A stretch of 63,426 bases of DNA, filler included, from Octopus bimaculoides (lineage: Eukaryota): the NCBI RefSeq assembly GCF_001194135.2. It is 6 parts of 6 records of this genome, joined end to end, with 100 filler letters (N's around TTAATTAATTAA, not from the genome) between each part and the next. Parts side by side here need not be neighbours in the genome. Positions count along the whole stretch, not along the records: positions 17,948 to 29,622 come from NC_068981.1; positions 29,723 to 41,976 come from NC_068982.1; positions 42,077 to 52,078 come from NC_068994.1; positions 52,179 to 58,599 come from NC_068983.1; positions 58,700 to 63,426 come from NC_068997.1; 1 more part is not named here. One strand, 5' to 3'. Of the stretch, positions 21,341 through 63,426 are shown piece by piece. The notes beneath the pieces were generated by a model that saw nothing but the letters and a program-made list of their open reading frames with translations, did no database searches and had not been told where the DNA came from. The position numbers and the translations under genes were made by a program. Position 1 is the stretch's first letter; each line of letters opens with the position of its first letter.

Positions 21341-21469
21341 TATATATATATATATGTTGTTGTACTTGGGGATGGTCATATTGCCAGTTTAGCCAATAAA
21401 AACACACGCACTGTATATTTGGTGTTAATTTGCTTCAGCTTTATATTACATTAATCTTAATCTTATTTC

Positions 21470-21513
21470 GACCAGAGTTCTTTCGTCACACTTCTGTGAC
21501 CTCATCAGTGGTC
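21470..21513 (-). ncRNA. Minimal type I hammerhead ribozyme motif
   Basis: Minus strand GACCA-CTGATGA-G-GTCACA-GAAG-TGTGAC-GAA-AG-AA-CTC-TGGTC: 5-bp stem I, intact core, 6-bp stem II, 2-bp stem III, CUC cleavage triplet. Confidence 0.8.
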
Positions 21514-22416
21514 CTTTGTTTCCTTCTTTCTTATGTGTGTCTCACCTTGCTAACTATCAGCCATTTTGTATTTTGTATTCCTATTGTATGTGTCTATGCA
21601 TGCGTGTCCTTCAATGTGTCTGTGTCTTTTGTAAGTGCATGTGTGTATGGGGAGTGTCTGTATCACCTATATTCTCTGTTAATACGTGTTCGTTTNNNNN
21701 NNNNNNNNNNNNNNNNNNNNNNNNNNNNNNNNNNNNNNNNNNNNNNNNNNNNNNNNNNNNNNNNNNNNNNNNNNNNNNNNNNNNNNNNNNNNNNNNNNNN
21801 NNNNNNNNNNNNNNNNNNNNNNNNNNNNNNNNNNNNNNNNNNNNNNNNNNNNNNNNNNNNNNNNNNNNNNNNNNNNNNNNNNNNNNNNNNNNNNNNNNNN
21901 NNNNNNNNNNNNNNNNNNNNNNNNNNNNNNNNNNNNNNNNNNNNNNNNNNNNNNNNNNNNNNNNNNNNNNNNNNNNNNNNNNNNNNNNNNNNNNNNNNNN
22001 NNNNNNNNNNNNNNNNNNNNNNNNNNNNNNNNNNNNNNNNNNNNNNNNNNNNNNNNNNNNNNNNNNNNNNNNNNNNNNNNNNNNNNNNNNNNNNNNNNNN
22101 NNNNNNNNNNNNNNNNNNNNNNNNNNNNNNNNNNNNNNNNNNNNNNNNNNNNNNNNNNNNNNNNNNNNNNNNNNNNNNNNNNNNNNNNNNNNNNNNNNNN
22201 NNNNNNNNNNNNNNNNNNNNNNNNNNNNNNNNNNNNNNNNNNNNNNNNNNNNNNNNNNNNNNNNNNNNNNNNNNNNNNNNNNNNNNNNNNNNNNNNNNNN
22301 NNNNNNNNNNNNNNNNNNNNNNNNNNNNNNNNNNNNNNNNNNNNNNNNNNNNNNNNNNNNNNNNNNNNNNNNNNNNNNNNNNNNNNNNNNNNNNNNNNNN
22401 NNNNNNNNNNNNNNNN

Positions 22417-22447
<31 letters not shown>

Positions 22448-22449
<2 letters not shown>

Positions 22450-22556
22450 CAGTCAATAGGTGAGAGCTAGATATGTTCAGTCTGGGAAACACGTAGTAAT
22501 GCTGAAATGAAATGAACTCAAACTCCGAATTCTTCATCTAGAACTAGCTCCACGGC
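22448..22556. repeat. 109-bp direct repeat, copy 1
   Basis: Identical to 24984-25092 except one base (CAGTCTGGG vs CAGTATGGG); both copies follow a (CA)n tract. Confidence 0.92.
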
Positions 22557-23235
22557 GTCATGAATGCCTATAAAAGAAATCAAACACGAGCTGAAATGGA
22601 GATAGTGATGCAGATATACACAATTAGGCCTGACATATAGATCGCCATGATAGATCGCCATGATAGATCGCTAGCCACTACACATTCTTTTTTTCTCTCC
22701 TTGTTTCTTTCGAAACGTTAAAGACTTTTTCACTTTCCGAGCGTTATACTAATACATCTGTTTGTTGTCTACACCACCTGTCTTCGTCTTTTTGGGTTTT
22801 TTTGTGAATTCTCCCTATATATACNNNNNNNNNNNNNNNNNNNNNNNNNNNNNNNNNNNNNNNNNNNNNNNNNNNNNNNNNNNNNNNNNNNNNNNNNNNN
22901 NNNNNNNNNNNNNNNNNNNNNNNNNNNNNNNNNNNNNNNNNNNNNNNNNNNNNNNNNNNNNNNNNNNNNNNNNNNNNNNNNNNNNNNNNNNNNNNNNNNN
23001 NNNNNNNNNNNNNNNNNNNNNNNNNNNNNNNNNNNNNNNNNNNNNNNNNNNNNNNNNNNNNNNNNNNNNNNNNNNNNNNNNNNNNNNNNNNNNNNNNNNN
23101 NNNNNNNNNNNNNNNNNNNNNNNNNNNNNNNNNNNNNNNNNNNNNNNNNNNNNNNNNNNNNNNNNNNNNNNNNNNNNNNNNNNNNNNNNNNNNNNNNNNN
23201 NNNNNNNNNNNNATATATACATATATATATATACT

Positions 23236-23405
23236 TGTTTCAGCACCACCTTTAATCGAGCAAATCGACCCCAGGACTTATTCTTTGTCAGCCTAGTACT
23301 TATTCTATAGGTCTCTTTTGCCAAACCACTAGGTTACGGGGACGTAAGCACACCAACATCAGTTGTCAAACGATGATGGGGGCACAAACAGACACACAAA
23401 CACAC
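23236..23405 (-). mobile_element. SINE tail S3
   Basis: Reverse complement of 18970-19180. Confidence 0.85.
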
Positions 23406-23448
23406 ACACACACACACATATGTTTGTATATATATGTGGTGGTGGTGG

Positions 23449-23690
23449 CACTCCGTCGCTTACGACGTCGAAGGTTCCATTTGATCCGATCGACGGAACA
23501 GCCTGCTCGTGAAATTAACGTACAAGTGGCTGAGCACTCCACAGACATGTGTACCCTTAATGTAGTTCTCGGGAATATTCAGCGTGACACAGTGTGACAA
23601 GGCTGACCATTTAAATTGCAGGCACAACAGAAGCAGGAAGTAAGAGTGAGAGAAAGTTGTGGTGAAAGAGTACAGCAGGGTCCTCCATAT
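23449..23690 (-). mobile_element. SINE with tail S5
   Basis: Inverted homolog of 43855-44090. Confidence 0.85.
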
Positions 23691-23694
23691 ATAT

Positions 23695-23856
23695 ACACGA
23701 CGGGCTTCTCTCAGTTGCCGTTTACCAAATGCACTCACAAGGCTTTGGTTGGCCCGAAGCTGTAGTAGAAGACACTTGCCCAAGGTGCCATGCAGAGGGA
23801 CTGAACACGGAATCATGTGGTTGGTAAGCAAGCTACTTACCACACAGCCACGCTTG
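23695..23856 (-). mobile_element. SINE head S2
   Basis: CATGTGGTTGGTAAGCAAGCTACTTACCACACAGCCAC and AGAAGACACTTGCCCAAGGTGCCA on the plus strand. Confidence 0.88.
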
Positions 23857-24772
23857 CGTCTATAGATACACATACCAAAACATGCGAAGGTGTACTTGGC
23901 ATGTAGGTGTCCTATGCTCCGTTCTTCTGTTGGATTTGTAGCGAAAGTAAATGTGTCATAAACGTAACCATTATTTGGCAGTTTAAGTGGCTGAAATGTT
24001 TCTCAATCATGCAATGGTGACGACCCGAGACTTGTATATAGGCCGCTTGGGTACACTTTGAGTTATTTGTTGGATTTCTCGTTTATTGTGGCAATAATGA
24101 CCGTTATACTTCCCATTCTTGCGTAAATCGAAGACCTGCACTGATATATTTTAAAAAGTTGAACCAGTTTCCAGATCGGTACCGGAACCAAGACTTTTTA
24201 TATGTAGCAGAGAATATTTGAGTTCTTACGGATCACACTGTAACAAAGTTACCCCTTTGTCCGTTTGTGGGTTGGGATTGGAACCAACCCAAGAGTTTCT
24301 TTAACCAAATATCCTACACGATGATATAGCCTTATGAAACTCGAGTTCCAATTTACTTAACATCTTTCGAAGTTTCTAAATTCTTATAATTCTTATGGGC
24401 CACACTGTAGCTGGCTGTCCCCACTGTTTTCCATGCACCCACCTCACTAACGAGCCCCGATGCGGCAAAACTTTTGGATACTCGCCGACAATCTGAAAGT
24501 TCTCTCACATGTGTCTTCCACATTCATTAAGAAACATTTCCTGTTTTCCTTCTAGCTCGCCAATCAATGTTTTGTTATCCTCCTTAGCCATTGTGGATCT
24601 TGCTACAATCCCGCATCTATAGGAAATACCCTACACTGTCGTTCTCGGAAATACCCTACACTGTCATTCTCGTGTATCGTATGATTCCCTAAACCCTTCA
24701 TATTCTACGCTTTTCTTTTCATGGTCCCACCACTATATTGCCTTTCTAAGACGTCCGCTTAGAACATTTTAT

Positions 24773-24955
24773 GACAACCGATGCTGGTGTGTTTATGTCA
24801 CCGTAACTTAGCGGTTCAGCAAAAGACACCGATAGAATAAGTACTAGGCTTACAAAAAATAAGTCCTGGGGTCGATTTGCTCGACTAAAGGCGGTGCTCC
24901 AGCATGGCCACAGCCAAATGACTGAAACAAGTAACAGAGTAAAGAGTAAAGAGAA
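24773..24955 (+). mobile_element. SINE tail S3
   Basis: GACAACCGATGCTGGTGTG...GGCGGTGCTCCAGCATGGCCACAG..ACTGAAACAAG. Confidence 0.88.
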
Positions 24956-24983
24956 TATATACACACACACACACACACACAAG

Positions 24984-25092
24984 TGCAGTCAATAGGTGAG
25001 AGCTAGATATGTTCAGTATGGGAAACACGTAGTAATGCTGAAATGAAATGAACTCAAACTCCGAATTCTTCATCTAGAACTAGCTCCACGGC
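24984..25092. repeat. 109-bp direct repeat, copy 2
   Basis: See 22448-22556. Confidence 0.92.
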
Positions 25093-25371
25093 ATTTTATG
25101 TCCTGTTACACGATGCCATAACGACAGAGTGTTGCATTGTATAACATATATGCACCCAGAACATACCCTCGCCACAATGTAAATCTTCCTCACCGAATGA
25201 TATTCGGGTGTTTCGTTAACGACCCACTGTCTGATAGGGGAGAAATGCAATCTTGTTGGTTTTGTTTTCCTCAACATAGTCTATGATAACTTTCTCTGCT
25301 CAACTCTCCTCCTTGCATCTTATATGCATTGACTTTCTAATTATTCATCTTTTCGTTGCTTACTCCACTTA

Positions 25372-25449
25372 TGATTGAGACAGCTTTGTAGCTGGGAACT
25401 GCAAGAGGTAATCCTCTTGCAGTTCCCAGCTACAAAGCTGTCTCAATCA
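25372..25449. repeat. Perfect 37-bp inverted repeat with 4-nt spacer
   Basis: TGATTGAGACAGCTTTGTAGCTGGGAACTGCAAGAGG-taat-CCTCTTGCAGTTCCCAGCTACAAAGCTGTCTCAATCA. Confidence 0.97.
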
Positions 25450-25930
25450 CTGTGGTTCCCGGTTATTATTGTTTCCATTATAGCAGTTCCTAGCTACAAC
25501 GATGTCTTTCACGAAGATGTCTTCGTCGAGGCACTTCCCAGCCACGTGGTTGTCTTTATCACGCCAGTTTCCAATTACCAAGCTATAGCCATCAAGGAAA
25601 TTCCTGGTTATCAGGTTTACTTCTTCGTGATAGTTTGCAAACACTGGGCTCTCTATAGCAATTTCTAGAATCCCAAAACTCCTCATTACAGAACCACCAG
25701 GTTCTTTTTGCTGCGTCACATTCCAACCACCAGACTCTTTTTACGACAGTTTCCAGCCACCTGTTTCTCTTCGTTACACCAGTCTTCAGTCACCAAACTG
25801 TCACTGTTTTGACAATTTCCATCCAATAAGCTTTCTTCGCTACGTCAATTCCTAACCATGGTATTTTCCGTCATAGATGTTCCCAGGCACCATGCTGTAT
25901 TCGTCACATTAGTTCTCAGTCATAAAGCTG
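25413..25930. repeat. Diverged minisatellite, about 31-35-bp unit, about 16 copies
   Basis: Recurrent CAGTTCCCAGC(C/T)AC....CTGTCTTCGTCA-like units, heavily mutated. Confidence 0.65.
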
Positions 25931-26750
25931 TTTAACTTTAAGGTTCTGAAATGGGCCAAGAATAAAATTAATGAAAGAACAAAACCTGCTATTTGCATCC
26001 ACGAAATAAATCACACGAATACATTATATGCATTGACACTTTGCATTCTTCTTTCAACTCCATTATATATAAATATGTGAATATTGAGCCATTCACGTAA
26101 AACAGCTTTATATATTTCATACTGTAATTTTAGTTCCATCCTTCCATATTTACCTCAGACTAACTGTCTACCCTTTCACTTTTCCATTCTTTCTTTAGTT
26201 CGTCCGTTCATCTCTCTAGTCTTCCATCTTCCCACTCTTCACTCTATTTGATTATTCTTTCAACTATTCCTCAGCCCTTCTGTCTATTCGTCCACATTGC
26301 AATACATTCTTCAGTCCATCTAACCATCTAACTTAATATCTTTCCCTCATTTCTTCTGTCCATCTCTCTCTATCCCTTCGTCATTCAATCTGTCTGTCCT
26401 TCCATCCTTTCATATTTACTTCACACCATATACCTTCCTTCTTCCCTTCCTTCCTTCCTTCCTTCCTTCCTTCCTTCCTTCCTTCCTTCCTTCCTTCTAA
26501 TTAGCCTTCTATCAAATATTANNNNNNNNNNTCCTTCCTTCCTTCCTTCCTTCTAATTAGCCTTCTATCAAATATTACATCCTTATTTCTGATTCTTATA
26601 TTTACCGTCTATCCTGCCATTCTACATCCATGTAAAAGTATTTGTCTGTCTGCCCGTCTGTCTGCCCGTCTGTCTGCCTGTCTGTCTGTCTGTCTGCCTG
26701 CCTGTCTACCTGTCTACCTGTCTACCTGTCTACCTGTCTGTCTGTCTGTC

Positions 26751-26801
<51 letters not shown>

Positions 26802-26841
26802 GTCTGTCTGTCTGCCTGTCTGTCTGCCTGTCTGTCTATCT

Positions 26842-27568
26842 ATGAAATTAGAAGAGGCACTTAGAAGTGGCATCGCGACCAACGTGCTGGTGGCGAGGTT
26901 GGCCCTTGACCAACACTTAAACGTCAAACACGAAGGTTTCGTTGTCAGAGCTAGGATGCATGCCTCAAGAAACGAGGGAATTGGAGCCACCGGAGAGGCC
27001 CGGGCGGCGGAAGCGCAACGTGGCAACAAAGCCATCATTCAGTCTTTGATAGACCAACATGGCCACGAGTTACTCAAGTGCGAAAGGATGCGTGAGGCCT
27101 TTCAGCAACATTTTGTCCGATTGTTCAGGACAACTGGTGAGTCGGAACGCAGGATAGACATCTACATAGCCTGCCACGACTTTCGGCAGGAGAGGCGGAG
27201 TGTTGCGAACGTCCCATTACAGCCAAAACCTCCAAATGGAGAAGAACTGGGATGAGATAACGAGCAGTGGGGTCACTCTCACCCAGCTATGGGCCAAGAG
27301 GAAGCTATCTCTAAAAGGTCTGGCTGAGGTGGCGAATGCGTACATCGCATCCGTCATCTATTACCGTCTTACCGTCGCGCCTTGTCCCGACCCCACCAGT
27401 ACGAAACTGGAACGCATACTCTTCCACGTTTTGTGGAGGGAAAGCGTTCCAATTGTTAGGCGGTCCATTTATTGTCAACATCCGCTAAATGGCGGGCTGA
27501 GTATGTCGTGGTTGATGATGCACAGACATGCGCAGACATGCGCTGAGACTGCGACATCTCCAGCGTTT
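26842..27568 (+). mobile_element. L1/Tx1-like ORF2 remnant with the RT domain deleted
   Basis: Linker region (HEGFVVRARMHA...EAQRGNKAIIQSLIDQ...EAFQQHFVRLF) followed within about 100 nt by the post-RT region (WAKRKLSLKGLAEVANAYIASVIYYRL...QHPLNGGL...RHALRL). Confidence 0.72.
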
Positions 27569-29097
27569 GTGGTGATCTCCTGTTCCTGAATTGCAAACGC
27601 ATAGCCTTCAAAGTGTGATGTGATGTAGTGGTCTTGTGTCCAAGAGGGGCTGCGCTTCGTATCAACTCTACCGCCTTATTCAAGCTTCCGAGCAACATAC
27701 CCATGCATGGTCTTTTTTTTTCTTTTGTATGCGGAGTACTTCCCATCCAGGTCTTCTCTGAGGTAAGAGAGCCCAGCTGTCTTGGAGCTGCAAAGATCAT
27801 CTGGAAGAGAGTGTTTCTTAAAGAGCTCACTGCCAACTCGTACAATGTTCCTCGCTTCACTTTTCAGGACTACATTAATATATTTACTTTTGCTGCTGTT
27901 GTTTAGCAGGTGCTGCCTGAGTGATACCATACAGCATTCGAAGGTCGTCTGCACTGATCTCAGGCCTCTACCACCTTCATTTCTTTCTTGGTAGAGCCTG
28001 TCAACATCACTGTTTCTGTGGAAGTTCTCAGTTGTTGTCAGGATTTTGCGGGTTTTGATATCTATGGAGTGGATTTCCTCTACAGACCAGTCAAGTATCC
28101 CAAATATTGGGATTAGCACTGGTACTGCAAATGCATTGTGGGATATTATTTTTTTGTGAGAGGAGAGTTCCAACCGCCATATTTTCCTAAGTCTGGTGCA
28201 ATATTCTCGGGCCACTCTATATTTATTCCTTTTCGTCTATGCCTAGGTACTTGTAATATTCTTTGTGTGGAATGGGGGAGATAGAGAGACCGTTGTTGCA
28301 CAGGTTTTGGGGGACTAACTTTCCTCGTTCTATAACCAAATACGAACATTTCTTTTGGCTAAATTCCAAACCTGTATCAGCTGAAAATGTTATTAATTCC
28401 AGTTGTTTTTTGGCATTGTTAACACTTTTAGCATAAATCTTCAGGTTGTCTACAAAAAGATTATGAATTACATTGATATTGCTGGCAGTTGAAGATCCTA
28501 GCAAGTAATCATTTGTTTTCTACTGTATTCTCTCTCAATTGAATTTAACCATGATACATTCAGGTTGAAATTTCTCTTTTCGTTCCAAATTTTTGACCAG
28601 AATGAGTGTAGATTTTCTTGGGAGGGAGCTTTCTTAATGGTAATATTTTTCCTCCTCATCTCTCTGTATAATGCTTGTAGGTTGGAAGCAAACTTGCGAT
28701 TGATACTGGTTCGCTCAAACATTCGCTTGCGATAGCGGAGTTTCTTGCTCAACGTCCTGAGTTCATGTTTTAAAGTGGTTAGTTTTCCCTCAAGAGCTCG
28801 GTGTGAAGAATTGCCATAAAGTTTCATTAATTTTTGGCTAAGGTAGAGTTAGTGAGGTGTAAACACATTTTTCTCCTTACATTTTATTGTTGTAGTTAAC
28901 CATCCAATATGGCGGCGCATGTTGTTCATGCTTTCCATCTAAGTTGTTTCCGTTTAGTAATTTCGTTAATTTGTTCACTGTAGATTTCTCCTAGGTGTTC
29001 TTTAAGAGTAATAACGGCTGTGTATATAAGAGTATTAATATTCCAGTAATTAACATCACATGATTCCATGTGCTCTCCAGCAACATCGTCAATAACC
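27566..29097 (-). mobile_element. R4/Dong-like retrotransposon, internally deleted
   Basis: N-terminal/RT0 region (FWSKIWNE), then HNLFVDNLKIYAK (decayed YMDD), YKYLGIDE, HNAFAVPVL, SDVDRLY..RNEGGRGL and SHFEGYAFAIQEQEITT; RT domains 1-4 absent. Confidence 0.88.
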
Positions 29098-29155
29098 TTA
29101 TGTATGCATGCATGTATGTATGTATGTATGTATGTATGTATGTATGTATGTATGT

Positions 29156-29378
29156 CCAGGGGTCCATATATTACCTTTACAATTTGAAAAATTCCGACAA
29201 AAAGACATATTAGAATAAGTTAGCAGAGTTTATTGGCAAACATAGGCAAATAAATAAAATTTTATTAGAAATATCAGAAGACGTCCACATGGGCTCCATT
29301 GCTCGTAATCTGTTGCGTTAACCTATTTTTTTTTCTCTGAATTTTTTGAAATTCTAAAGGTAATTTATGGGCACCTAT
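29156..29378. mobile_element. Tc1/mariner-type MITE with imperfect TIRs of about 38 bp
   Basis: CCAGGGGTCCATATATTACCTTTACAATTTGAAAAATTC matches the inverse of GAATTTTTTGAAATTCTAAAGGTAATTTATGGGCACCTA. Confidence 0.7.
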
Positions 29379-29431
29379 ACAATCCTCTATCATCAGATGA
29401 TTTTAAACATATCTAACTATCTATCTATCTA

Positions 29432-29485
<54 letters not shown>

Positions 29486-29622
29486 AAGGAAAAATATTGG
29501 CTTGCTCATATAACCAGCAGAATGGCGTCATTCGAAGGCTAAAATAGTGCAAAGTACTTTGTAACTAGCGACATGGAACAATATCTGATAGTCCGGCTGG
29601 TCACGTGATCACGATATATATA

Positions 29623-29722
29623 NNNNNNNNNNNNNNNNNNNNNNNNNNNNNNNNNNNNNNNNNNNNTTAATTAATTAANNNNNNNNNNNNNNNNNNNNNN
29701 NNNNNNNNNNNNNNNNNNNNNN
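29623..29722. other. Artificial scaffold spacer N44-TTAATTAATTAA-N44
   Basis: Same 100-bp format. Confidence 0.95.
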
Positions 29723-30083
29723 GCCCTGGGAATGACAGCGAAACGGGCTGATTACTACCTAGCTCAGATACCAGGAAACCCCAAAATGGCTGAAGTTCAA
29801 AAGATAGTGCTCATGGGAACTGCCCATATCCTACGTAAAATACTGTCTATGTGATCTCAAATTTTAAAACAAACACATAATTGTCTTATGGTTTCTTAAA
29901 CATTCACTAGAACAAAACTGTACAAATCCACATATATGTACCCTAGGCATAACACCTACATGAACTTCTAACTTGTTGTCTCTTGAGGTATCTAGGTGAG
30001 ACTTGGATCCAACGTGTACAAATGCAAAACAAAAGTCAAACATAAAATAATAATAATAATGATAATGATAATAATAATAATAA
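29723..30083 (+). mobile_element. R4/Dong-like 3' end, lineage A, with (AAT)n tail
   Basis: ALGMTAKRADYYLAQIPGNPKMAEVQKIVLMGTAHILRKILSM*, 3' UTR, AAT repeats 30047-30083. Confidence 0.9.
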
Positions 30084-30085
30084 AA

Positions 30086-30430
30086 CCAACGAATATAAAA
30101 ATCGCCATGATAGGGTAGGACAGTATTTACATTGGAATATATGTAAACACTACAAAATAAGCGCTTCTGCATACAGTTACGAACATCATCCTGAGCCAGT
30201 CGTTGAAGGTAAAAATATCACTATCTTCTGGGATTTTCCAGTCAACACTGACAGAACGATCCAGGCTAATCGACTAGACATAATTATCAAACACTGGGAA
30301 GAAAAGGCTTGTACAGTAATAGATGTAAGTGTTCTCAATCATTGAAAAATATACATGCCAAGGAATTTGGCAAACTAGGTAAATTTCCAAACTTAGAAAT
30401 TAAAATACAATAGATGTGTCTCTAAAAATC
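30086..30430 (+). mobile_element. R4/Dong-like fragment, post-CCHC to RLE domain
   Basis: NEYKNRHDRVGQYLHW...EHHPEPVVEGKNITIFWDFPVNTDRTIQANRLDIIIK...IDVSV; starts immediately after the AAT tail. Confidence 0.88.
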
Positions 30431-30439
30431 GCAGGGAAG

Positions 30440-31373
30440 CCATTAGCAACCTGGCACTTCCAGTTGTTTAATACAGTTTTAACATCATTGACTGGAATCT
30501 TACGGAGTTCCAATGCCTGGACAAGAAGGCAAGAGAAATACTAACTTTTAACATGCACCGCCCAAAAGCACATATTGATAGTCTGTACCTACCTAGAAGT
30601 AATGGCGGAAGAGGAATGATGCTGGTAGAGCTGTCCTATAAGACTTCCACAACAGCACTGAACAAGTACTTATCTAGTGCAGAAGACTGGATGCTGCGAC
30701 TTGTGTGCAAACACGAAAGCAGCAAAAAAAATCGTATTCGGTTGTCAAGGAAGCTTTCAAATTGACAAGGGAACATGGCATTAACCGGGATATAGTTGAG
30801 CAACCTGACACCAGTGCCACAAAACAAACAAAATAGCTCGAACAATCTGCAAAAAAGAACTGGAAGAAAAAACTTGCCGAGCGATGGATGCAGAAGCTTC
30901 AGCATGGACAGTATATACTTCGAGACGAAATGTTGCTGTAGATCAAGCAATAACCCATCAATGGCTGTGAAGTTCAGGATTGAAAGCAGAGACTAATGGT
31001 TTCAGATTGGCGGCACAAGAGCAAAGCTTGATCACTAAACACTACCAGGCTAACGTTCTTCAAAACGGTTCTGACATTAAATGCAGATTCTGTAACACTT
31101 TTCACGAAATAATAGACAATTTCGTGTGGGGACTTTATGTCCTACCACCAAACGAATATAAAAATCATCACGATAAGGTAATACAATATTTACATTGGAA
31201 TATATATAAACACTACAGAATCAGCACTCCTGCTTACAGTTAGGAATAACATCCTGAACCAGTCGTTGAAGGTAAAACTGTCACTATCCTCTGGGATTTT
31301 CCAATCAATACTGACAGAACGATCCAGGATAATCGACCAGACATAATTATTAAAGACTATGAAGAAAAGATTT
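30440..31373 (+). mobile_element. R4/Dong-like fragment: thumb, CCHC knuckle, start of RLE
   Basis: MHRPKAHIDSLYLPRSNGGRG, KAETNGFRLAAQEQSL, CRFC, ILWDFPINTDRTIQDNRPDIIIK; ends in (GGT)n(AGT)n. Confidence 0.9.
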
Positions 31374-31388
31374 GTGGTGGTGGTGGTG

Positions 31389-31462
<74 letters not shown>

Positions 31463-31479
31463 CAACAGCAGCAACTACA

Positions 31480-34400
31480 AACACGGCATGAAGAACAATA
31501 AGAATGATGGAATGGACAGAGTTATCTAGCTAGTAAAGTTATCTCGGACAACGAAAAGGACAATAAAGACAGCCCTAACCACATAAGTAACAATACAGTT
31601 TACAATATCATCAACAATAATAACCTTATTTAAGCAAACAAGTCTAGTGCAGAGCCAAATAATCATTCCTCGCCAGTAAGTTTTAAATGAAACAAAAAAT
31701 GCAAGTGCAAATCAAATCTAAATCATAACACATCGGTCATCGTGAGAGTTACCAAAGAGCGCGTCTCTGAGCTGGCAACCAATCTGAGTTCATAAATTTA
31801 GCTTCTGGAAGGAACTCCTCCGGAGATCGATCCGAGGAGAAATTGGAACCAAGAACTTAAGTCTGACACGTCAGATCAAATACCAACAAATAGCGTCAAA
31901 TGAATTAGAAATATATGGACCACACGCGTAGTATAAACGGGTTGTCACAGCATTTTAAAGAACACTGAAAAAACACGAATATCACTAAGCAGTGCTATAA
32001 CATCTGGAGAGTCGATGTCGGAGAAAGGTTTTGCCAGTATATAAACCCAAACAAGCTAGTAAATGTACGCAGAGATACCCTGTGTAACCACAGATTCACT
32101 CCTGATGAAATAGGGTATATCAAAATCACCGTTAACACTAACTTAAATAATGACAGTGAAGACCGTGTACTAGAAATTAACAAAGCAAATTCAGTATGGA
32201 TTACTGCCGTTAATAAACCACAGTATCAAGCCGATTATATGTCAGAGTATGGGGCACACCGAAACATGAGATTCTTCACAAATTATATACCACTACACAA
32301 GCTTCGTTTATAGAAGATAATATCGGCAAAATCCAGTACACAAAAGTGACGCCATTCATGAATGCCGTATCTTACAGCCTACAGAAATTAATGACAGAGA
32401 ACAGCTTCCTAATTTCCGAAGGAACAAGTCTAGCCTACTCATAATATAATATTTATGGTATTGCCCTGAAGCAAATCCTTGCGGAATCTAAATTCGGCTT
32501 GACGTCATTAAATTGCTTCATATATGAAGTATCATCTGCAGATATTATGGGATTAGATATCAAGCTAAGAAATAAGACTTCCAAAGAAAACATGAAAAAA
32601 AAATCAAAAGAAATGGAAAGAACGAATAAATAAAGGAACGGAACTGCTTAGATATGAATTGGTTATATTAAATGAATTATCTAAAGAGAACAACGTCAAC
32701 ACAAGGCAAGCTAGAAGGCCAAGGTACGAGTACAAATTAAATTACTTGAATGCAGTAAAATACAAAGGGTTAGTAAAATCACATATATAGATTAAGGCAC
32801 AGTGTATCCATAATTTTGATAATTGAAGTAACGTCTGTAGACAAAAGAAAATATTCAAAACGGATGCGAAAAATGTTCAGAAAACTTGGGAAGAAAACAA
32901 CAGAAATTAAGGTTCTACCTGAAATGCATGAGATAAAAACCTTGTGGAAAAGTATGTAGAGTAATAACAATTGCTTTGATGAATATTGAAAATTGATCAT
33001 AAGTTTGGAACAAAGAAAGCTGAATATACAAGAACAATCGGGAAGACATTACCATCAATGATCTGATAAAAGCCTTATCAAAGACTCAAAAATAAAAATG
33101 CTGTGGCATGGTATGATTCCACACTTTTGGTTGAATGCTCTGATAACACACAATCAATCTTCTGAGATTGTTTCTAACATGATGAAAAACGCAGAAGAAA
33201 CGTCATGTTGGTTGACTCAAGAGTTTATCTATGCGATGCAGAGCAATGACGGATATAAACCCCGAAGAATTGAAGGGCAATTACGTACTTTACTACCGCT
33301 TACAAATTATTGAAAATAATTCTAACAGAGTGCGCATGCAAGTACGGCATTCTGGTTTTAGAGCAAAATAACTATCGTGGTAATTCTTATGACTGCAAAG
33401 ATCAACTTCTGATTAACCGAATGATACATGAAAACTGCTCCACTAAAAGCCATCATCTTACTACAGCCTGGTTAGATAACCGCAAGATATTCAGTAGTGT
33501 CCCTCACCTGTGGATCGCAAAAACTCTAGACTTGTACAAGAGATCAGCAATTATTAAAGGTTTTCTTCGCCGAATGTGGGCAGGTCATACACAAAATTGT
33601 ACCTCAATCATAACAAAGACATAAGTACATCTGGCAGTATTATGATTAACCGAGGTATACGCCAAGGAGGCTCATTGACACCATTCTATTTTTGATTAAC
33701 AGTCATATATCTGGCATATGAATTGAACCATACACAATATCGAAACAAAATCTTTGATTGAAACATCTCATTATTATGGATGACCTCAAGCTACATGTAA
33801 AAAACAATAATGATATGAAGGGATTACGAACAACTGTAAAGAGTATTTCTGACAATATCAACATGGAATTTGGCTTGGATCAGTGTGCCGGAGCAACGTT
33901 TAAACATGGAAAACTCATTTCTATAACACCAACTTCGCTAAATGACAACCCTATTATCAAAGAATTAAACAAGATGGAGCATACAAATATCTGGGACTAA
34001 ATTAAGGGAAAGGAAGCAAACACAGTACTATGAAGTAAAACATCAAGGAGGAATATTATAGGAGAATAAGACTGATCATTAAAATGGAAGTGAATTCTCA
34101 GAATACGATTCAAGCTATTATGTTGCTGTCCCAGAGTCACATTTTAATCATAATACAATTAACTGCAATATATTAATGAACTCCAACGTATGGACACCAG
34201 AACGAGAAGACTAATGGCTACAAAGAATTTGCATCATCCGAAACTTGCTATTCATGCAGTCTACGGTATTTCAATAGAAGGTTGTATAGACCCCATTCAA
34301 TTAGAATGATCTTAGAAGACCACCACAATAAGACTTATTCCATACATCTCAAATAGCTACGATTGGTTGATACAATTACTAAACCAACATGAAGGGAACA

Positions 34401-37238: not shown

Positions 37239-37313
<75 letters not shown>

Positions 37314-38755: not shown

Positions 38756-38819
<64 letters not shown>

Positions 38820-52646: not shown

Positions 52647-53262
52647 GATTTTAGTTTTGATCACTTGGTTTTGATTGCCTCGATTGCATAAAATTGTTAT
52701 TGCGCTGAAGTTTGGTTTTGCTTACAATTTCGCAATCTTTGTTTGTATTGTAGATTGCTGTATTTTTTGTTGATTAAAACCTCTTAAACTTAGATATTCT
52801 CGTTTGGGTTTATAATGATTTAACTAAAAGTAGCTAGAGAGAGAATGGACAGTGAATTTATAAACCAAATTTGTGTCAAGCTTCAAAAGAATAGAAATAT
52901 TGGTAGAGAACTTTTATAAATTTTTGAGAATCATTTCCTGCTGAACCACCTATCACCGACGAAAGCAAGCTTAAGTGTTTAACAGCGCACATAGATAAAG
53001 AGGTTTACGAACTCATAAGTGAATGTGAGAATAACGCAGAAGCAATTCAAACTCTGGAGAGATTGTACGTGAAACTCTTAAACATTATTTTTGCAAGACA
53101 CCTTTTAATGCCATGCAAACAAGAACCAGGTCAATCAGTTGACGATTATTTACAGAAATTGAAATGACTAGCTAAAGATTGCAGGTACAGAGCAGCGCAC
53201 GCTGAGACTCACAAAAATGAAGCTGTTTGTGACGCATTTATCTTGGGATTAACGTCATCTTC
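52638..53262 (+). mobile_element. Gypsy-like LTR retrotransposon fragment: possible LTR plus gag
   Basis: KLKCLTAHIDKEVYELISEC...AIQTLERLYVK...IIFARHLL..CKQEPGQSVDDYLQKLK*LAKDCRY...EAVCDAFILGL is a typical Gypsy gag; starts TGTTG after (TA)n. The LTR call is weak. Confidence 0.78.
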
Positions 53263-53272
53263 AACATCTTCA

Positions 53273-54088: not shown

Positions 54089-54140
54089 ACCTTAATACCT
54101 TTGCAGACTATGCCAGTGGTGCAGTCACCCTCCCACCCCC

Positions 54141-54302
54141 TCCACCAGTACCGGAAGTTCCTATCCTCTCCACCAGTACCGGAAGTTCCTATCCTCTCCA
54201 CCAGTACCAAAAATTCCTATCCTCTTCACCAGTACCAGAAGTTCCTATCCTCTCCACCAGTACCGGAAGTTCCTATCCTCTCCACCAGTACCAGAAATTC
54301 CT
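54141..54302. repeat. 28-bp minisatellite, about 5.8 copies
   Basis: TCCACCAGTACCGGAAGTTCCTATCCTC units at 54141, 54169, 54197, 54225, 54253 and 54281. Confidence 0.95.
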
Positions 54303-55201: not shown

Positions 55202-55252
<51 letters not shown>

Positions 55253-55267
55253 ACATACAAAAACAAA

Positions 55268-56950: not shown

Positions 56951-57073
56951 TACATGTATACATATACATCTATATATATATATATATNNNNNNNNNNNNN
57001 NNNNNNNNNNNNNNNNNNNNNNNNNNNNNNNNNNNNNNNNNNNNNNNNNNNNATATATACATACATATATATA

Positions 57074-57629
57074 TAAAAATTTAAGGAATGGAGAAAACGC
57101 ATGTTATAATTGCATACTTTATTCCTACATATGTTTCAAAGGATTACAACCTATGTGATCCATAGGGATCTATGATGTTAAAATTGTAACCTTCTCTTCA
57201 GGGAATGCATGGGAATCATCTTAAACGTAAGATATTATGACCGAGTATGAAACCAATAGATGGATAAGGTTATGACGTGATTCATTTGAAAAACACTGTT
57301 AGAGAATTGGATGCTACCGGATAGTGGGTTGGACAACACATACATATAAATGAATATACATACATGCATACATAATTACATATACATATATACACACACA
57401 CATATATATATATATATACACACATATATACATATATATGTGTATATGTATATATACACACACATACACACATATGCCCACATTTACACATATGCACATA
57501 CGGACCTACGCATATACAAATATACATATATGTGTGTATATGGATCACATAGGTTGTAATTCTTTGAAACATATGTAGGAATAAAGTATGCAATTATAAC
57601 ATGCATTTTCTCCATTCCTTAAATTTTTA
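57074..57629. mobile_element. 556-bp unit bounded by 91-bp inverted repeats, carrying a hammerhead
   Basis: 57074-57164 and 57539-57629 are reverse complements with 2 mismatches; TA at both ends. Confidence 0.85.
57112..57211 (-). ncRNA. Type I hammerhead ribozyme motif with extended stems I and II
   Basis: Minus strand CATGC-ATTCC-CTGAAGA-GAAGGTTACAA-[34-nt loop containing a CCTATG/CATAGG hairpin]-TTGTAATCCTTT-GAA-ACATATGT-A-GGAAT-AAA-GTATG; palindromic stem III, GUA triplet. Confidence 0.85.
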
Positions 57630-57958
57630 AATATTCTCAAATACCCAAAATTTCAAGGAGTTTCTGCCTCAAAAACAGGAACTACACCACAGTTATTTTG
57701 TGTTCTTTGCTACCTTGGTTTCTATTAACCCATTTATTCTATCCGAAGAATCTTTATTCATTAAGATAGAAGAAATACATATAATTAAACATATATATAT
57801 ATATATATATATATATAGCAATAAGAAAATGGAGGGATTAACAGGTGGTATTCATCAACTTATAGACATTATATTATGTCAGTTTACTTGTTTATTTACT
57901 AAAAGGATAATTATAACAATATACAGACACATATGACATATTATGTCTTATATCAGTA

Positions 57959-58560
57959 ACTAACAGTATAGCCCAGTGCTGCCCGGGATTAAGCTAGGAT
58001 TATTAAGTGATCCAAGTGCTTTATTTCAAACCAAAATAAGTAACATCAACATCAGATTTGAACGAAATCCGTTGAAATTGGTTTGGCTGAAAATGGTTTG
58101 CTGGCAATTTGATTGGGAAATCCCATAAGGAATCAGTTTATTGGTTATTTCCACTCATTGACTGCTTTTTTTAAAGTTGCATTAGAGATCTGCATAGGAG
58201 AAGGTTGATCTGAAGGTTTGCATTGGGGATCTGGATTGGAGTAATTTAGGAAAACTTACCAACAGCCTTAACCAAAAAATAAGGGGCCTGTCCCTTTTAG
58301 GTTAACTCTAACCCTAACCCTAAACCCTAGCCCTAACCCTAAAACCCTAACCATGATCCTAAAACCATAGCCCTAACACCAACCCTAATCCTGATCCTAA
58401 CCCTAACCCTAACACTAACCCTAATCCTTACCGTAAAACCCTAACCCTAAAACCCTAACCTCAACACCATAGTGGAAATCGTGTGGGTGTTAATCTGAAA
58501 AATTACCAAACCCTTTTTGTGGTCCAAAAAACGAGTTGTGGGTGGAAGCCTCAGAAATTT
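57959..58560 (+). mobile_element. Possible non-autonomous Helitron/Helentron-type repeat
   Basis: 5' end ACTAACAGTATAGCCCAGTGCTGCCCGGG resembles recalled DINE-1/HINE-like termini, and internal short tandem repeats are present; 3' end not seen. Confidence 0.4.
58303..58461 (+). repeat. Degenerate interstitial (CCCTAA)n telomere-like array
   Basis: About 25 imperfect CCCTAA, CCTAAAA and CCATAG units. Confidence 0.85.
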
Positions 58561-58599
58561 TAACCATTTATATTGTGTAATTCACTGACAAATTGTTAC

Positions 58600-58699
58600 N
58601 NNNNNNNNNNNNNNNNNNNNNNNNNNNNNNNNNNNNNNNNNNNTTAATTAATTAANNNNNNNNNNNNNNNNNNNNNNNNNNNNNNNNNNNNNNNNNNNN
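58600..58699. other. Artificial scaffold spacer N44-TTAATTAATTAA-N44
   Basis: Same 100-bp format. Confidence 0.95.
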
Positions 58700-58881
58700 T
58701 TTAAAGCAAACATAATTTTCTTATGGTTTCTTAAACATTCACTTGAACAAAACTGTACAAATCCAAATATATGGTACCCTAGGCATAACACCTACATCAA
58801 CTTCTAACTTGTTGTCTCTTGAGGTCTCTGGGTGAGACTTGGATCCAACTTGTACAAATGCAAAACAAAAGTCAAACATAA

Positions 58882-58920
<39 letters not shown>
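58700..58920 (+). mobile_element. R4/Dong-like 3' UTR, lineage A, with (AAT)n tail
   Basis: Matches 29865-30083. Confidence 0.88.
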
Positions 58921-58921
<1 letters not shown>

Positions 58922-58965
58922 GATAGGCTACAGCAAATATTCTGCTTGATACTACAGATTTTCTA

Positions 58966-59530
58966 TGCCAGGATGCAATACCAGGCAGTGGCTCTCATGG
59001 CTTCTGACCTTAACTGATTGGAAGTGTTATCATGTACATTGTTTTGTCTTGGTATAAAAGATGGGCTACAACAAATATTCTGCTTAATACTACAGATTTG
59101 CTTGTCAGTTGTTTGACCTTAACCAGTTGAGCATGTCACTTGGTGGCTGACAATATGTGCATCTCTGATCATGAGCAGAAGTAGTGAGGGAGTATCATAG
59201 CCATGTGTTGAGAGGAATTCTTTGGGGTTTGAATAATTCACTTTTGGAAACAGGTATTTTGCTCAGCATCCTTAAACAAACCTTATTCAGGGACCTTTTG
59301 AGTGGGATGGGCTACTTGACCTGAAGAAAATTCTAACTGGGCCCCACATGTGCTGTTTATCTTGATATGAGATCACCATGTCATGCACATATTGTTGTGA
59401 TGCATGTGCCTGGTGTACCCTTATCAGACGGGTAGTCATGATGGGTATAATGGGCTTCGTATATTTTACCCCAGTGTCACTTTGATGACATGCACTGCTC
59501 TCTCACTCAATAATAATAATAGTAATAATT
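58966..59530 (+). mobile_element. About 550-bp non-coding repeat with (AAT)n tail, second copy
   Basis: Inverted homolog of 4488-5251; ends CTGCTCTCTCACTCAATAATAAT. Confidence 0.85.
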
Positions 59531-59599
59531 TTGAAGGGAGATAATCATGTTTTCATAGCACACTAATACCCTCTACACTCTATAAGATGTCCACAAATA

Positions 59600-62520
59600 A
59601 TATTTAGCCTGCTCAACAATTCTTGCTACTATTTTCCAATATCCATCGACTCTCATTGAATTACATCCCAAACATTACTGCTTACTAAACTGTAAACCAT
59701 ACATACTTTTACTCAATTATACACAAATCACTCAACTCTTACCAATTATCCATCTCTGCTGAATTATGCAAAACTCTCTGCTCAAACTTTGAAAGCTGGG
59801 GCCTGTGCATATATAGATTCCACTCTTCCTATCACTGACCAGTATATCATAAACAATTAAACATAGATTTCAAGTCCTTGTGGATCAAAGTCTTGCCTTC
59901 CTGAAATGACATATTGCACCCCTTTCTTCATATACATGGAAACCCACCTAAATAACACTCACACGGAAGTGGAAATATAAAATTTCACCATCATCCATGC
60001 AGATCGAGCAGACCAAAATAAAGGAAGGACAACCAATTTTCTCCATGACTCTGTTCACACGGATGCCAAGGATATATTTTCGAATGTCTGCCATGAATCC
60101 ATATCGCCATACAACAAAGTTGTCTCTACAGACATCCCCAAATCCCTCTACAGTTATTTGAAGAGTGCCTCAATAAAATCAAGTCTTTTCTTAAAAATAC
60201 AAATCCGGGACATATTGATGATGGGCGATTTGAACCCCCTTTATCTAAACCAGTTTACAAATACTTTAAAGCTACTTAACTGCACAGCACCAGACGAAAC
60301 AGCTGCAGAATTACATTCTAATTAATGAATGAATTTTTCCTATCCCCACTGGTGCTTTAACCAATAAAACAAGAAAAAACGGTCCAGAATCTGATATTAA
60401 GAAACCACTCTAGCTCCATCCATAGAATTTCAGTTGAAAAAAATCTTTTGAAACCTTAGTTTCTGGCTCACCAAAACCAACCTAGTCACTCTCCTCGCCT
60501 CTGCACCAATTCAACATCAATTTTCACAAAGGAGACTGGGAAGAAATTATTAACAGAAAGGTCTATCACTTATCGATTGGGCCTCCACCCACAGTTCCTC
60601 TGACATTGAAACAACATGACAGCGACTTGAGAATGTCACTTATACATGATCAAAACATGCATCTACAAAACACATAAACATGAACAGAAATAGGCTCCGA
60701 AGAGAGAAGAAAACACTCATCTGGAGAATTAAATAGCTCAATAAAATCAAATCAACCAATTACAATACTACCGCCAAAATGCAACCATATTCAACATAAT
60801 AAAAATGGCTTGAGTTGAAAAGCATCACCTACATCGACATGAAAATCTACATCGACAATCAAACAGCTGCAGAGGAAAACTGGGTAATCAAACCAAAATC
60901 AGAATCCAAAAGTGTTCTATTTATTTGCCAATAAGCATAGGTTCTTTTTGTTGGCCACTGATTGATGATAAGATCATTCTCTGCCATGATGTTAAAGAAA
61001 TGACAGAAGTACTGAAGAAATAATACTGAAAGAAGTGAGATCAAGTACTCATCTACAGCAGACCCTGAGAGATTCCCCGCTAATGTCTTGAAAGAATGTG
61101 GAAACCAATTTGCAACCCCTCTAACCAACCTCTGAAGAAATTCTTTAAGCTCAAACTATATACCGAAGTAGTTCTTATTTCAATCTGTCATCCGGTTTTT
61201 AAAAAGGGAAACACGTCTCTCGCAGTTAACTACATCCCAGTCACATTCGCCTCTCATCAAATTGTTTGAAGAGGAGTTGAAATAAAGAAAAGCTGACTTC
61301 TTTGAGAGCGACAAGCCTCTAAATTCCAACCAGCTTGGCTTTTGCTGCAGCAAGGATTAGCTTACATCACCACATCGATGATGTCTTTAAAGTCTTGGGT
61401 TCAGGTTCGAACTCTGACTTCAGAAAAATGTTCAAAAGAGTCGACCGCAATACTCTATTGACAAAATTGTCAAATATTGGAATCCGTGCAAAATTGCTAC
61501 ACTGGTAAACTATTTCCTGGAGAACAGAATATAATATGCTGTGATCGGTGGAATCCACTCAAAGCCCAGAAAAAAATTACCAGTGATTTTTTCCTCCAGG
61601 AAGCTGTTTGTCTCCCGCTTCTCTTTATAGTCTATACAAACGACATCTCAAGCGCCATCAAGCAGATCAAATAAAAACATTTGCAGATGACTTCAAGATC
61701 CATGAAATTATCAATGGAGAAGAGTTAACTGAACTCTAGTCTGATCTACATGCTTTAAGCCAATGGGCGGGCAAAAGTAAATGTAGTTAAATGAGGGAAA
61801 ATTTGAACTGATGCATTTTGGAAAAAAGAAGACTGCACTCAAGCAACAATATTCTCTTCCTTCAGGGTTACCATATACAGCATCCAATAATATCAGGAAG
61901 TAAGGTGTGATTGTTGATGACAATCTCATCTGGAGTGCCCACATCAATAATAAAGTCGAAATGGCTCGCAGAATGAGTTCATGGATTCTCAGTACTATCC
62001 TATCCAGAGAGCAAGATGTCATGATTCTTCTCTTATCCTCCTTTCTACGACCACACCAAGGATACAGCCGCCTTCTGCGGTCTCACCAATCCATGCAAAA
62101 CATTACGAAAATAGAGTCACTGCAGAGAACATTCACTGTAAAATTGGGACCGCTTTAAATCATTGAAACTTTATTCTTTTCAGCGCAGCCGTGAGCACTT
62201 TGTTATTTGCATGACATGGAGAATATAGCACCAGCATTGTCGAAACGACGTTAACAATAGATTCAGAATTCCTCCAAGGCTGGGGCTACGTGCCATACGT
62301 TCTCTACACAATACAGGCTCACAAAACAACACCACTGCAACATAATTTCTTTTTCTGATCAGGCCCTGCTCTATTTAACATTATCCCACAACAAATAAAA
62401 GAAAAAGATTTCATCATCTTCCAATGAAAACTCAAATTTCCTCAAGGAATACCAGGTAAGCCACCTACACCTGGATAAGTATTAGTCAACATCTCATTGA
62501 TTGAATTGATGGTAATATCG
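59600..62520 (+). mobile_element. Heavily decayed CR1-like LINE ORF2 (APE endonuclease plus RT)
   Basis: ILMMGDLN (GDFN motif), FPANVLKECGNQFATPLTNL, NSNQLGF, DFRKMFKRVD, LLFIVYTNDI, TFADDFKI, GVIVDDNLIWSAHIN, IESLQRTFT, GPALFNIIP; many stops. 5' boundary approximate. Confidence 0.85.
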
Positions 62521-62886
62521 CAAAATTTGACTAAAAGATGACTTGAATTATTTTCTTCGTTTGTGTTATTAAGCTAGACATAGCCTGGGCCAATCTTGGA
62601 CCGAAACATATCTAAGTTAATTTATCATACAGATACATATACGTATGAATGCGCTACGAAATATTTGTCACCATAGTTATCCATTCTGATACACATGCTT
62701 ATGCGTAAACACACACCAATATATATATATAAATATCGGTTGTGTAGGAATCAATTAGAGGGGTTTTAATATCTCTAAGGGATAATCAAAGTCGCTCCTG
62801 GTTATTACCTGAGTAGGTACAGTCTTTTGTAAGGTTGCACGGTAGCAGGTAGTTCGGCTGGTAAACCGTAGTTTAGGTTATATAGG

Positions 62887-63399
62887 AGAAGAAAATGGAT
62901 ATAATAAGGAGGGGAAACTGGTGATTTTCGCTGGTATACCTTTAATTTGATTCACCTACACCGCCGTTGATAACCAATTGCAGAATGTAAACATATTGAA
63001 TACACACATGCGAAAAAAAATGTGCTTAATTAAACTAGGATCCCCGCATCTAAATCATACTCACCCCGCCCTAATTACCCACCGAAACTAACCAGTCTAC
63101 CACAATCAAACCTCTACCCAGCGAATTTACCAGCGCAAGAACAAAATTTAATGTAAGACTTACTACCTTTGTTTATATTACCACCACATATGTATTGATT
63201 ATGTATCAATTATTTTCGCATCCTAACCGATGCATCTATCTATATTCGCATTCTGATGAGATTTACTTAAATCAGTGAATTGAAACGATCGTAAATGCTG
63301 CCTTCATTTCTGCTTCCTCCTTCTTTGTTATCTAATTAAATTAAAGGCATACCAGCAAAAACCATTAGTATCCCCTTGTTATTATATCCATTTTCTTCT
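62887..63399. mobile_element. 513-bp unit bounded by 62-bp inverted repeats, carrying a hammerhead
   Basis: 62887-62948 against 63338-63399: 54 of 62 positions complementary; (TA)n follows on the right. Confidence 0.8.
63248..63298 (+). ncRNA. Minimal type I hammerhead ribozyme motif
   Basis: GCATT-CTGATGA-GATTTACT-TAAATC-AGTGAATT-GAA-ACGATCGT-A-AATGC: 5-bp stem I, 8-bp stem II (2 G-U), palindromic stem III, GUA triplet. Confidence 0.85.
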
Positions 63400-63426
63400 A
63401 AATATATATATATATATATATATATA

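Follow-up and report, generated by a model that had tools for sequence, protein, structure and literature searches.

What are the non-coding, TA-anchored sequences of Octopus bimaculoides that carry hammerhead ribozymes? Do they form a ribozyme system of their own, or are they fragments of a known retroelement? We examined a window of 63,426 nucleotides, the whole stretch of DNA analysed, in which six parts of the genome are joined. Our reading, to which we give a probability of about three in four, is that the fragments bearing its three hammerhead folds, each close to a TA-anchored 3′ end, are the pseudo-LTR ends of 5′-truncated copies of Penelope-like elements (PLEs), from three families. 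The hammerheads are likely further examples of those in PLE pseudo-LTRs, in an arrangement known from other animals; their cut sites are predicted ones.

Three type I hammerhead folds

Are the folds real? The preliminary description had reported three type I hammerheads on three scaffolds, and both statements stand. A type I descriptor run over both strands of the whole window returned three sites in total, HH1, HH2 and HH3 (table 1), which lie on numbers 2, 5 and 6 of the six joined parts. For HH2, first placed at 57112–57211 on the minus strand, the motif was confirmed while its extent was not, the remainder of that interval being flanks. Under a strict criterion (helices I and II each of at least 5 bp), local dinucleotide shuffling gave no match in 200 shuffles; a palindromic helix III of at least 6 nt likewise appeared in 0/200, and one loose match arose in 9/200. 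The motif frequency of the window, three against none of equal quality, thus exceeds that of dinucleotide-shuffled sequence, as had been anticipated. The Rfam covariance models that had been suggested as a check gave no such support: local scans of the three sites matched no hammerhead family at E ≤ 10, and for the whole window no hammerhead was among the 150 of 365 matches listed. Such motifs escape Rfam, whereas three of them in 63 kb were picked up by the descriptor. The free folding energies are unexceptional (z = −1.87, −1.34 and −0.32), and exact-pattern scans of metagenome contigs gave 0 matches for HH1 and 0 for HH3.

Helix I is 5 bp in all three motifs. Helix II is 6 bp in HH1, 8 bp in HH3, and longer and bulged in HH2. 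Helix III is an 8-nt palindrome in HH2 (ACAUAUGU) and in HH3 (ACGAUCGU), with self-duplex energies of −7.0 and −10.0 kcal/mol, respectively; that of HH1, AGAACU, is non-palindromic (+1.4 kcal/mol). HH1 has one extra G between A9 and G10.1, and a G10.1–C11.1 pair. Helix I of HH2 is disfavoured in context, its pair probability being at most 0.06 with 30 nt flanks. A type I fold near the 3′ end, with a short helix I, a long helix II and a minimal or palindromic helix III, is the anatomy of PLE hammerheads, and this is what we find, the helix III of HH1 being non-palindromic. Pairwise alignments of the three elements are not clearly above those of shuffled sequence (score reached by 189/200, 16/200 and 7/200 shuffles).

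Table 1. Features of the three hammerhead loci and of a claimed PLE remnant; positions count along the window.
Feature	Position	Strand	Remarks
Claimed PLE remnant	1830–2540	+	stops in every frame; no database match
HH1-bearing element	21355–21695	−	3′ end abuts (TA)n at 21354
HH1 type I hammerhead	21470–21513	−	descriptor scan; predicted cut after C21475
HH2 short arm, likely pseudo-LTR fragment	57069–57340	−	TA about 51 nt past predicted cut; 5′ boundary set at microsatellite edge
HH2 type I hammerhead	57121–57206	−	descriptor scan; predicted cut after A57126
TA/CA microsatellite separating the two HH2 arms	57342–57538		
HH2 inverted 5′-truncated copy of 3′ end	57539–57634	+	96 bp, 97% identical to 57069–57164
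HH2 inverted-arm run-on	57629–57790	+	162 nt beyond short-arm stop; ends at (TA)n 57791
HH3 inverted-arm run-on	62732–62886	−	155 nt; ends at (TA)n 62720–62731
HH3 inverted 5′-truncated copy of 3′ end	62887–62952	−	66 bp, 86% identical to 63334–63399; arms head to head at 62952/62953
HH3 forward arm, likely 5′-truncated PLE 3′ end	62953–63399	+	
HH3 type I hammerhead	63248–63298	+	descriptor scan; predicted cut after A63293

Element ends, inverted arms and the HH3 family

How do the elements end? The TA anchoring noted at the outset is supported, with tracts lying 121, 51 and 109 nt beyond the predicted cut sites of HH1, HH2 and HH3. A TA tract occurs within 125 nt at 12% of positions, so that three of three would arise by chance at about 0.002, the distance threshold having been chosen after the fact. 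All five readable element ends meet TA; insertion bias towards microsatellites such as (TA)n is one mark of PLEs. The Penelope link and the ribozyme-type fold proposed at the outset are likewise supported, and the former is strengthened by inverted truncated copies, unseen in the preliminary description, at HH2 and HH3. At both loci a 5′-truncated copy stands inverted next to the 5′ end, a second PLE mark, and in the HH3 family the joints are variable. The HH2 copy begins in the loop of helix II and so has the 3′ half of the hammerhead only; the two HH2 arms, with a 200-bp microsatellite between them, could be two separate insertions. The HH2 run-on is a putative member of the HH2 family. The run-ons of HH2 and HH3 share no sequence (144/300 shuffles score equally), and both long arms have a TA-like word where the short arm stops. 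The insertion structure of HH1 is unreadable because its 5′ side enters an adjoining assembly gap (N, 21696–22416).

The HH3 family is dispersed, appearing in 575 and 553 contigs of two public DNA runs, of which 395 and 382, respectively, are below 95% identity; the summed contig depth was not taken as copy number. The family 3′ end is fixed at 63399–63400 and gives way to TA at other loci, TA-rich loose ends having been found there in 4/4 runs. Six of the 15 of 16 joints listed link the inverted to the forward arm at differing points, and four are inversions inside the forward arm, each supported by a single contig; the inversion point therefore varies among family copies. One contig joins the forward end, at 63396, to 62886 on the opposite strand. 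The HH3 run-on is repetitive from about 62780 in two DNA runs.

Does variation within the family preserve the fold? Five hammerhead variants are among the 40 of 145 variant rows listed. Four keep both core and pairing (N7 U>A, a change in loop II, U·G to U–A, and G·U to G–C at 10.1–11.1), an outcome with P of 0.02–0.09 according to the transition weight. The fifth, 63287 G>A, disrupts the palindromic helix III, and 6/10 and 8/10 of the RNA reads there carry it. As to the stem covariation that had been looked for among copies, in the HH3 family the fold is kept in 4/5 listed variants, and two-sided compensatory change is absent from the 40 of 145 rows.

Alternatives to truncated Penelope-like ends

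Could the elements instead be one or more dedicated non-autonomous PLE derivatives, retrozyme- or SINE-like, that lack a coding parent and have short linear or circular RNA, with PLE proteins acting in trans? This was the reading of the preliminary description, and we regard it as rather unlikely. It fits the want of coding sequence: the longest stop-free frames of the elements are 34–98 aa, and two of them, in the HH2 run-on (54 aa) and upstream in HH3 (46 aa), match nothing in Pfam or the Atlas. Missing coding capacity would likewise be expected of truncated PLE ends. Retrozyme families also include monomers, with consensus lengths of 51–972 bp, and are argued to derive from pseudo-LTRs (10.64898/2026.07.22.740005). 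Family depth in HH3, high over 63011–63399 and low over 62919–63010, could mark a preferred short unit. Loose ends at 62951 and at 63014–63015 belong to copies that continue upstream. The tandem arrangement expected of such a system did not materialize. None of the three motif sites has a tandem unit, and head-to-tail joints number 0 among the 15 of 16 HH3 joints listed, short-read assemblies being liable to collapse arrays. The HH3 run-on has no match in its own upstream arm (180/300 shuffles score equally), and a monomer would therefore exceed about 600 nt, the length over which the unit runs without repeating.

The RNA evidence also leans against that reading. HH3 reads number 60 of 12.9 million and 26 of 11.5 million (two cDNA runs, about 6% of each); none is 99% identical, and 77–81% continue into other sequence. 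The pile-up of read ends suggested for the predicted sites is absent for HH3 from both runs, as are circular joints, small circles being readily lost from such libraries. A drop in read depth over 63287–63309 in run X22 was considered as a sign of cleavage and rejected: it affects the strand that is antisense in most cases, 63285 is the end of a truncated copy, and run X24 has no drop. The claim of a retrozyme, dedicated non-autonomous family or circular RNA is accordingly not upheld; ordinary 5′-truncated PLE copies explain elements that are non-coding, hammerhead-bearing and dispersed, and no new system is needed. It is very improbable that the insertions at HH2 and HH3 represent miniature inverted-repeat DNA transposons that target TA and carry a hammerhead incidentally. 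Inverted repeats (96 and 66 bp) and the TA at both ends would suit such elements, but the repeats are not terminal, one arm extending 155–162 nt, the inversion point differs among HH3 copies, and the HH2 inverted copy begins within the hammerhead, as expected of a truncation. Scarcely tenable is the view that DNA rich in AT and microsatellites produced these folds by chance. The absence of Rfam matches, the unexceptional energies and the loose matches in shuffled sequence speak for it; against it, the shuffles and the mostly fold-preserving variation of the HH3 family largely refute it, and the location near a TA-anchored 3′ end recurs.

Is a mobilizing PLE itself present? A remnant had been claimed at 1830–2540 and taken as a sign of the mobilizing clade. 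The interval is riddled with stops. Read through them, it matched 0 Pfam families in 3/3 frames; word-based searches with one frame gave 0 matches, and phmmer with another gave 0 of 1.84 billion. Nothing ties it to the three hammerhead families, and neither claim is confirmed. Its order of motifs, which we take to resemble that of a PLE endonuclease, is not counted as evidence. Beside the motifs themselves neither the telomerase-like reverse transcriptase nor the GIY-YIG endonuclease of a PLE was found in arms that are only 270–450 bp long or enter the gap. These protein-search blanks are weak because Pfam also overlooked evident LINE fragments elsewhere in the window. One LINE fragment of the window is 91% identical to an O. 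bimaculoides protein.

Relation to known elements and a possible mechanism

How closely do the window elements resemble those already described? Metazoan PLE pseudo-LTRs carry hammerheads (Cervera and De la Pena 2014, PMC4209133), which are of type I, with a helix I of 4–5 bp (here 5) and a helix II of more than 4 bp. Their additional nucleotide following A9 and their G10.1–C11.1 pair recur in HH1, and the small palindromic helix III in HH2 and HH3. Several unrelated families per genome, and motifs that mostly occur singly in association with truncated copies, are again common ground, and the opposite-strand motif pairs 100–700 bp apart described there may be compared with the inverted arms here. 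On the other hand, HH2 and HH3 are without the extra base and have G·U at 10.1–11.1 in the window copies, the helix II of HH2 is far longer than 7–8 bp, and the link between hammerhead and open reading frame was not found for the window motifs. Two of that paper's supplementary files hold rows for Lottia and Crassostrea and none for a cephalopod.

PLE insertions are described by Craig et al. (2021, PMC8557442) as having an inverted 5′-truncated copy, a 30–40 bp tail on one end and a microsatellite bias. The inverted truncated copy by the 5′ end, the one-arm extension and the (TA)n ends agree with ours; the extensions of 155 (HH3) and 162 nt (HH2) do not agree with 30–40 bp. The (TA)n bias is clearest in the Naiads, described there as lacking canonical hammerheads, and the window elements would therefore belong to another PLE clade. 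A microsatellite bias is also reported for Neptune PLEs. With the non-LTR retrozymes of animals (Cervera and De la Pena 2020, PMC7229834; Li et al. 2026, 10.64898/2026.07.22.740005), the window elements share a type I hammerhead, low GC, non-coding sequence and likely PLE ancestry. Those retrozymes are repeats of about 150–450 bp with at least two complete same-direction hammerheads, whereas here tandem units are absent, the HH3 unit is over about 600 nt, and two RNA runs give no indication that HH3 RNA is abundant or circular. Their canonical helices I and II, of 6 and 4 bp, contrast with our 5 bp and with 6 bp, 8 bp and longer, a difference that also weighs against the retrozyme-like reading. 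Poseidon PAc of Anolis (Frangieh et al. 2024, PMC11167929) likewise ends shortly past the hammerhead in an AT-rich target, and there too RNA-seq reads do not terminate where the cut is predicted. Its reverse transcription starts at an RNA site non-homologous to the target, in contrast to the TA-like word that both long arms have here at the stop point.

How might truncated PLE ends of this kind arise? By analogy with published PLE biology, a full-length parent would provide reverse transcriptase and GIY-YIG endonuclease and nick (TA)n DNA, and reverse transcription would be primed inside the PLE RNA a short distance past the hammerhead. Early termination would leave coding-free stubs, and copying on the opposite strand would yield the head-to-head partner arm. 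Within a tandem transcript of the parent, two motifs may pair through the palindromic helix III of HH2 and HH3; such paired motifs would, on this model, cut slowly, possibly aided by protein. The solitary copies here are predicted to be mostly silent.

A bolder suggestion, which we put forward at long odds, is that (TA)n-targeting cephalopod PLEs prime when the nicked TA repeat base-pairs to a UA-rich word of their own RNA, and that two such sites exist, separated by about 160 nt. If true, this would explain why the long arm is 155–162 nt longer and why a TA-like word stands at the short-arm stop, and it would be unlike both the non-homologous priming and the 30–40 bp tail described. The similar run-on and TA-like stop word in two unrelated families, that is, at two loci, bear on how PLEs choose the start of reverse transcription.

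The three motifs are likely octopus examples of the association of ribozymes with retroelements described in 2014, as may be expected from the annotation of recent Penelope families in Octopus vulgaris. They offer a handle by which to find short PLE fragments and assign them to a class, where repeat libraries may fail to do so.

Anatomy of the three hammerhead motifs

When both strands of the whole window were scanned with a type I hammerhead descriptor, three matches were obtained (HH1, HH2 and HH3, on separate scaffolds) and no fourth complete type I hammerhead. Could such folds have arisen by chance? A single loose hammerhead match appeared in 9 of 200 local dinucleotide shuffles; helices I and II both of at least 5 bp appeared in 0/200, as did a palindromic helix III of at least 6 nt. 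Counted against the hammerhead reading are the absence of Rfam hammerhead matches at all three loci in local scans, the modest folding z-scores of the three motifs (-1.87, -1.34 and -0.32), and helix I of HH2, which is disfavoured once its flanks are included in the folding. Given three descriptor matches and no shuffle of equal quality, we conclude that the motifs reported in the preliminary description are real; chance folding is scarcely credible. The elements that carry them are not clearly related in sequence, their pairwise scores being reached by 189, 16 and 7 of 200 shuffles.

Coordinates of hammerheads, inverted arms, HH3 variants and other repeats
Feature	Position	Strand	Description
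HH1	21470-21513	minus	core start 21508; unpaired G between A9 and G10.1; helix II 6 bp; helix III AGAACU
HH2	57121-57206	minus	core start 57201; helix II long, bulged; palindrome ACAUAUGU
HH3	63248-63298	plus	core start 63253; helix II 8 bp; palindrome ACGAUCGU
HH2 inverted 3' end	57539-57634 vs 57069-57164		96 bp, 97%
HH3 inverted 3' end	62887-62952 vs 63334-63399		66 bp, 86%
HH3 variant T>A	63257		position N7
HH3 variant	63272		loop II
HH3 variant G>A	63277		U.G to U-A
HH3 variant T>C	63281		G.U to canonical G10.1-C11.1
HH3 variant G>A	63287		palindrome broken
Possible half-hammerhead	22700-22825	plus	GAA ACGT T, then possible helix I strand
Terminal word	63388	plus	TA within ~20 nt
Terminal word	57091, 57832, 52573	minus	TA within ~20 nt
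Fragment with terminal word	52555-52605	minus	~50 bp, TA both sides
LINE fragment, broken	6616-6972	minus	
LINE fragment, broken	14872-15144	plus	
LINE fragment, broken	27676-28848	minus	
LINE fragment, broken	30046-34000		
Telomere-like (TAACCC)n	58303-58460		~25 copies, 70% matches
Broken frame	52638-53260	plus	TGTTG directly after TA tract, leading into the frame

A fourth hammerhead, of minimal form, may also be represented by its 3' half. This sequence lacks the 5' core, lies some 105 nt ahead of a short TA end and a gap, and, as one among about 30 half-core rows, is a lead only.

TA ends, inverted arms and the HH3 family

The predicted cut sites lie 121 (HH1), 51 (HH2) and 109 nt (HH3) from a TA tract. 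The window, built of six scaffolds with N-padded spacers between them, is AT-rich, with abundant microsatellites, and a TA tract falls within 125 nt of 12% of its positions. The 5' side of the HH1 element enters a gap of 721 N, and arm structure is readable only for HH2 and HH3. In both, part of the 3' end is duplicated in inverted orientation, a feature missed in the preliminary description, and the 3' ends of the paired arms face outwards. The inverted, longer arm runs on beyond the point where the other arm stops, for 162 nt (HH2) and 155 nt (HH3), before reaching TA; at that point its sequence is TAAATAT in HH2 and TATATA in HH3. The two run-ons show no match to one another, and neither matches the upstream arm of its own element. 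Three contigs of one DNA run carry 6 bp at 62786-62787 that the window's HH3 long arm lacks, with which the HH3 run-on would measure 161 nt against 162 nt in HH2. A short 3'-terminal word, CCATTTTCT or CCATTCCTT, is common to the HH2 and HH3 element ends and to two TA-anchored fragments in which no hammerhead is recognisable; it may mark related ends of Penelope-like elements (PLEs).

How widely is such an element dispersed? For the HH3 family, the only one followed, we used four of 24 listed runs (two DNA, two RNA). The DNA runs, under two organism labels, yielded 575 and 553 contigs matching 62735-63402; since these are many and mostly below 95% identity, the family is dispersed and fairly old. 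TA-rich loose ends occur at 63399-63400 in all four runs. Sixteen joints were found, each resting on a single contig, with the identity threshold relaxed. Among the 15 listed, six connect the inverted and forward arms at differing places, four are inversions inside the forward arm, three are ambiguous because they fall within the inverted repeat or next to it, one skips 93 nt, and at one (62886/63396) the forward end carries on into the run-on; none is head-to-tail. At least five variants fall within the hammerhead among the 40 listed of 145. The fold tolerates four of these five (P 0.02-0.09), modest support for its having been kept; two-sided covariation was absent from the same 40.

In about 6% of each RNA run, the HH3 element was matched by 60 of 12.9 million and by 26 of 11.5 million reads; identity reached 99% in none of them, and no position gathered many read ends. 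Between 77 and 81% of the matching reads continue into unrelated sequence, and 6/10 and 8/10 of the reads covering 63287 carry the palindrome-breaking base. The signal looks like read-through of old copies.

Origin of the elements

We read the motifs, at a probability of about three in four, as pseudo-LTR hammerheads of 5'-truncated PLE copies. The folds, TA ends, inverted arms, and HH3 dispersal with its variable junctions are all observed. According to PMC8557442, PLE insertions frequently lack their 5' part and carry a truncated copy in inverted orientation together with a tail on one side only, and certain clades favour microsatellites. PMC4209133 describes PLE hammerheads with a short helix I, a long helix II, and either an additional base following A9 or a helix III that is a small palindrome, mainly single or in opposite-strand pairs and cutting weakly as dimers. 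Each of the three families would have a coding PLE parent, and HH2 and HH3 (computed self-duplex energies -7.0 and -10.0 kcal/mol; HH1, +1.4) would be predicted to cut as dimers. In the only PLE studied in vitro (PMC11167929), reverse transcription begins within the RNA, the hammerhead is protein-dependent and not needed for insertion, and no RNA-seq ends were observed at the cut site. Target-complementary priming at two sites some 160 nt apart, proposed from two loci, is doubtful.

The link to PLEs drawn in the preliminary description stands on arms, ends and fold anatomy; the searches brought up no PLE protein-coding sequence. The PLE remnant it placed at 1830-2540 was not confirmed: stop codons interrupt every frame, Pfam, two word-based searches and phmmer gave no match, and no DNA is held in common with the three hammerhead elements. 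These negative results carry little weight where a gene has decayed and shifted frame, because Pfam also missed LINE fragments of the window, one of which word search found at once.

Might the motifs instead belong to a dedicated non-autonomous family or a retrozyme? This is unlikely: neither tandem arrangement nor helix sizes fit a retrozyme, and the circular-RNA system envisaged earlier gains no support from the few reads, the joints or the read ends. A recent preprint (10.64898/2026.07.22.740005), in its available part, treats retrozymes as pseudo-LTR derivatives; the retrozyme and truncated-PLE readings are therefore close kin. A miniature DNA transposon is very improbable.

PLE-associated hammerheads are a known kind, of which HH1-HH3 are new members. 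Among the papers listed in searches on hammerheads, Penelope and retrozymes in octopus and cephalopods, we found no description of octopus PLE hammerheads. In the giant squid genome paper, 235 matches to Rfam hammerhead 1 are counted. The repeat study of O. vulgaris has 31 Penelope-like families in one table, the words hammerhead and ribozyme being absent from its accessible text. The three families may already be catalogued in Repbase or Dfam.

Other repeats in the window

The broken LINE fragments are many and probably belong to the R4/Dong group. The fragment at 6616-6972 has 94 database relatives, the closest among those named by taxon being an Octopus bimaculoides protein that aligns with 62% of the query at 91% identity; an octopus is therefore the likely host. 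The telomere-like array is degenerate and lies near the end of scaffold 5. The broken frame into which the sequence from TGTTG leads may be an LTR-retrotransposon gag.
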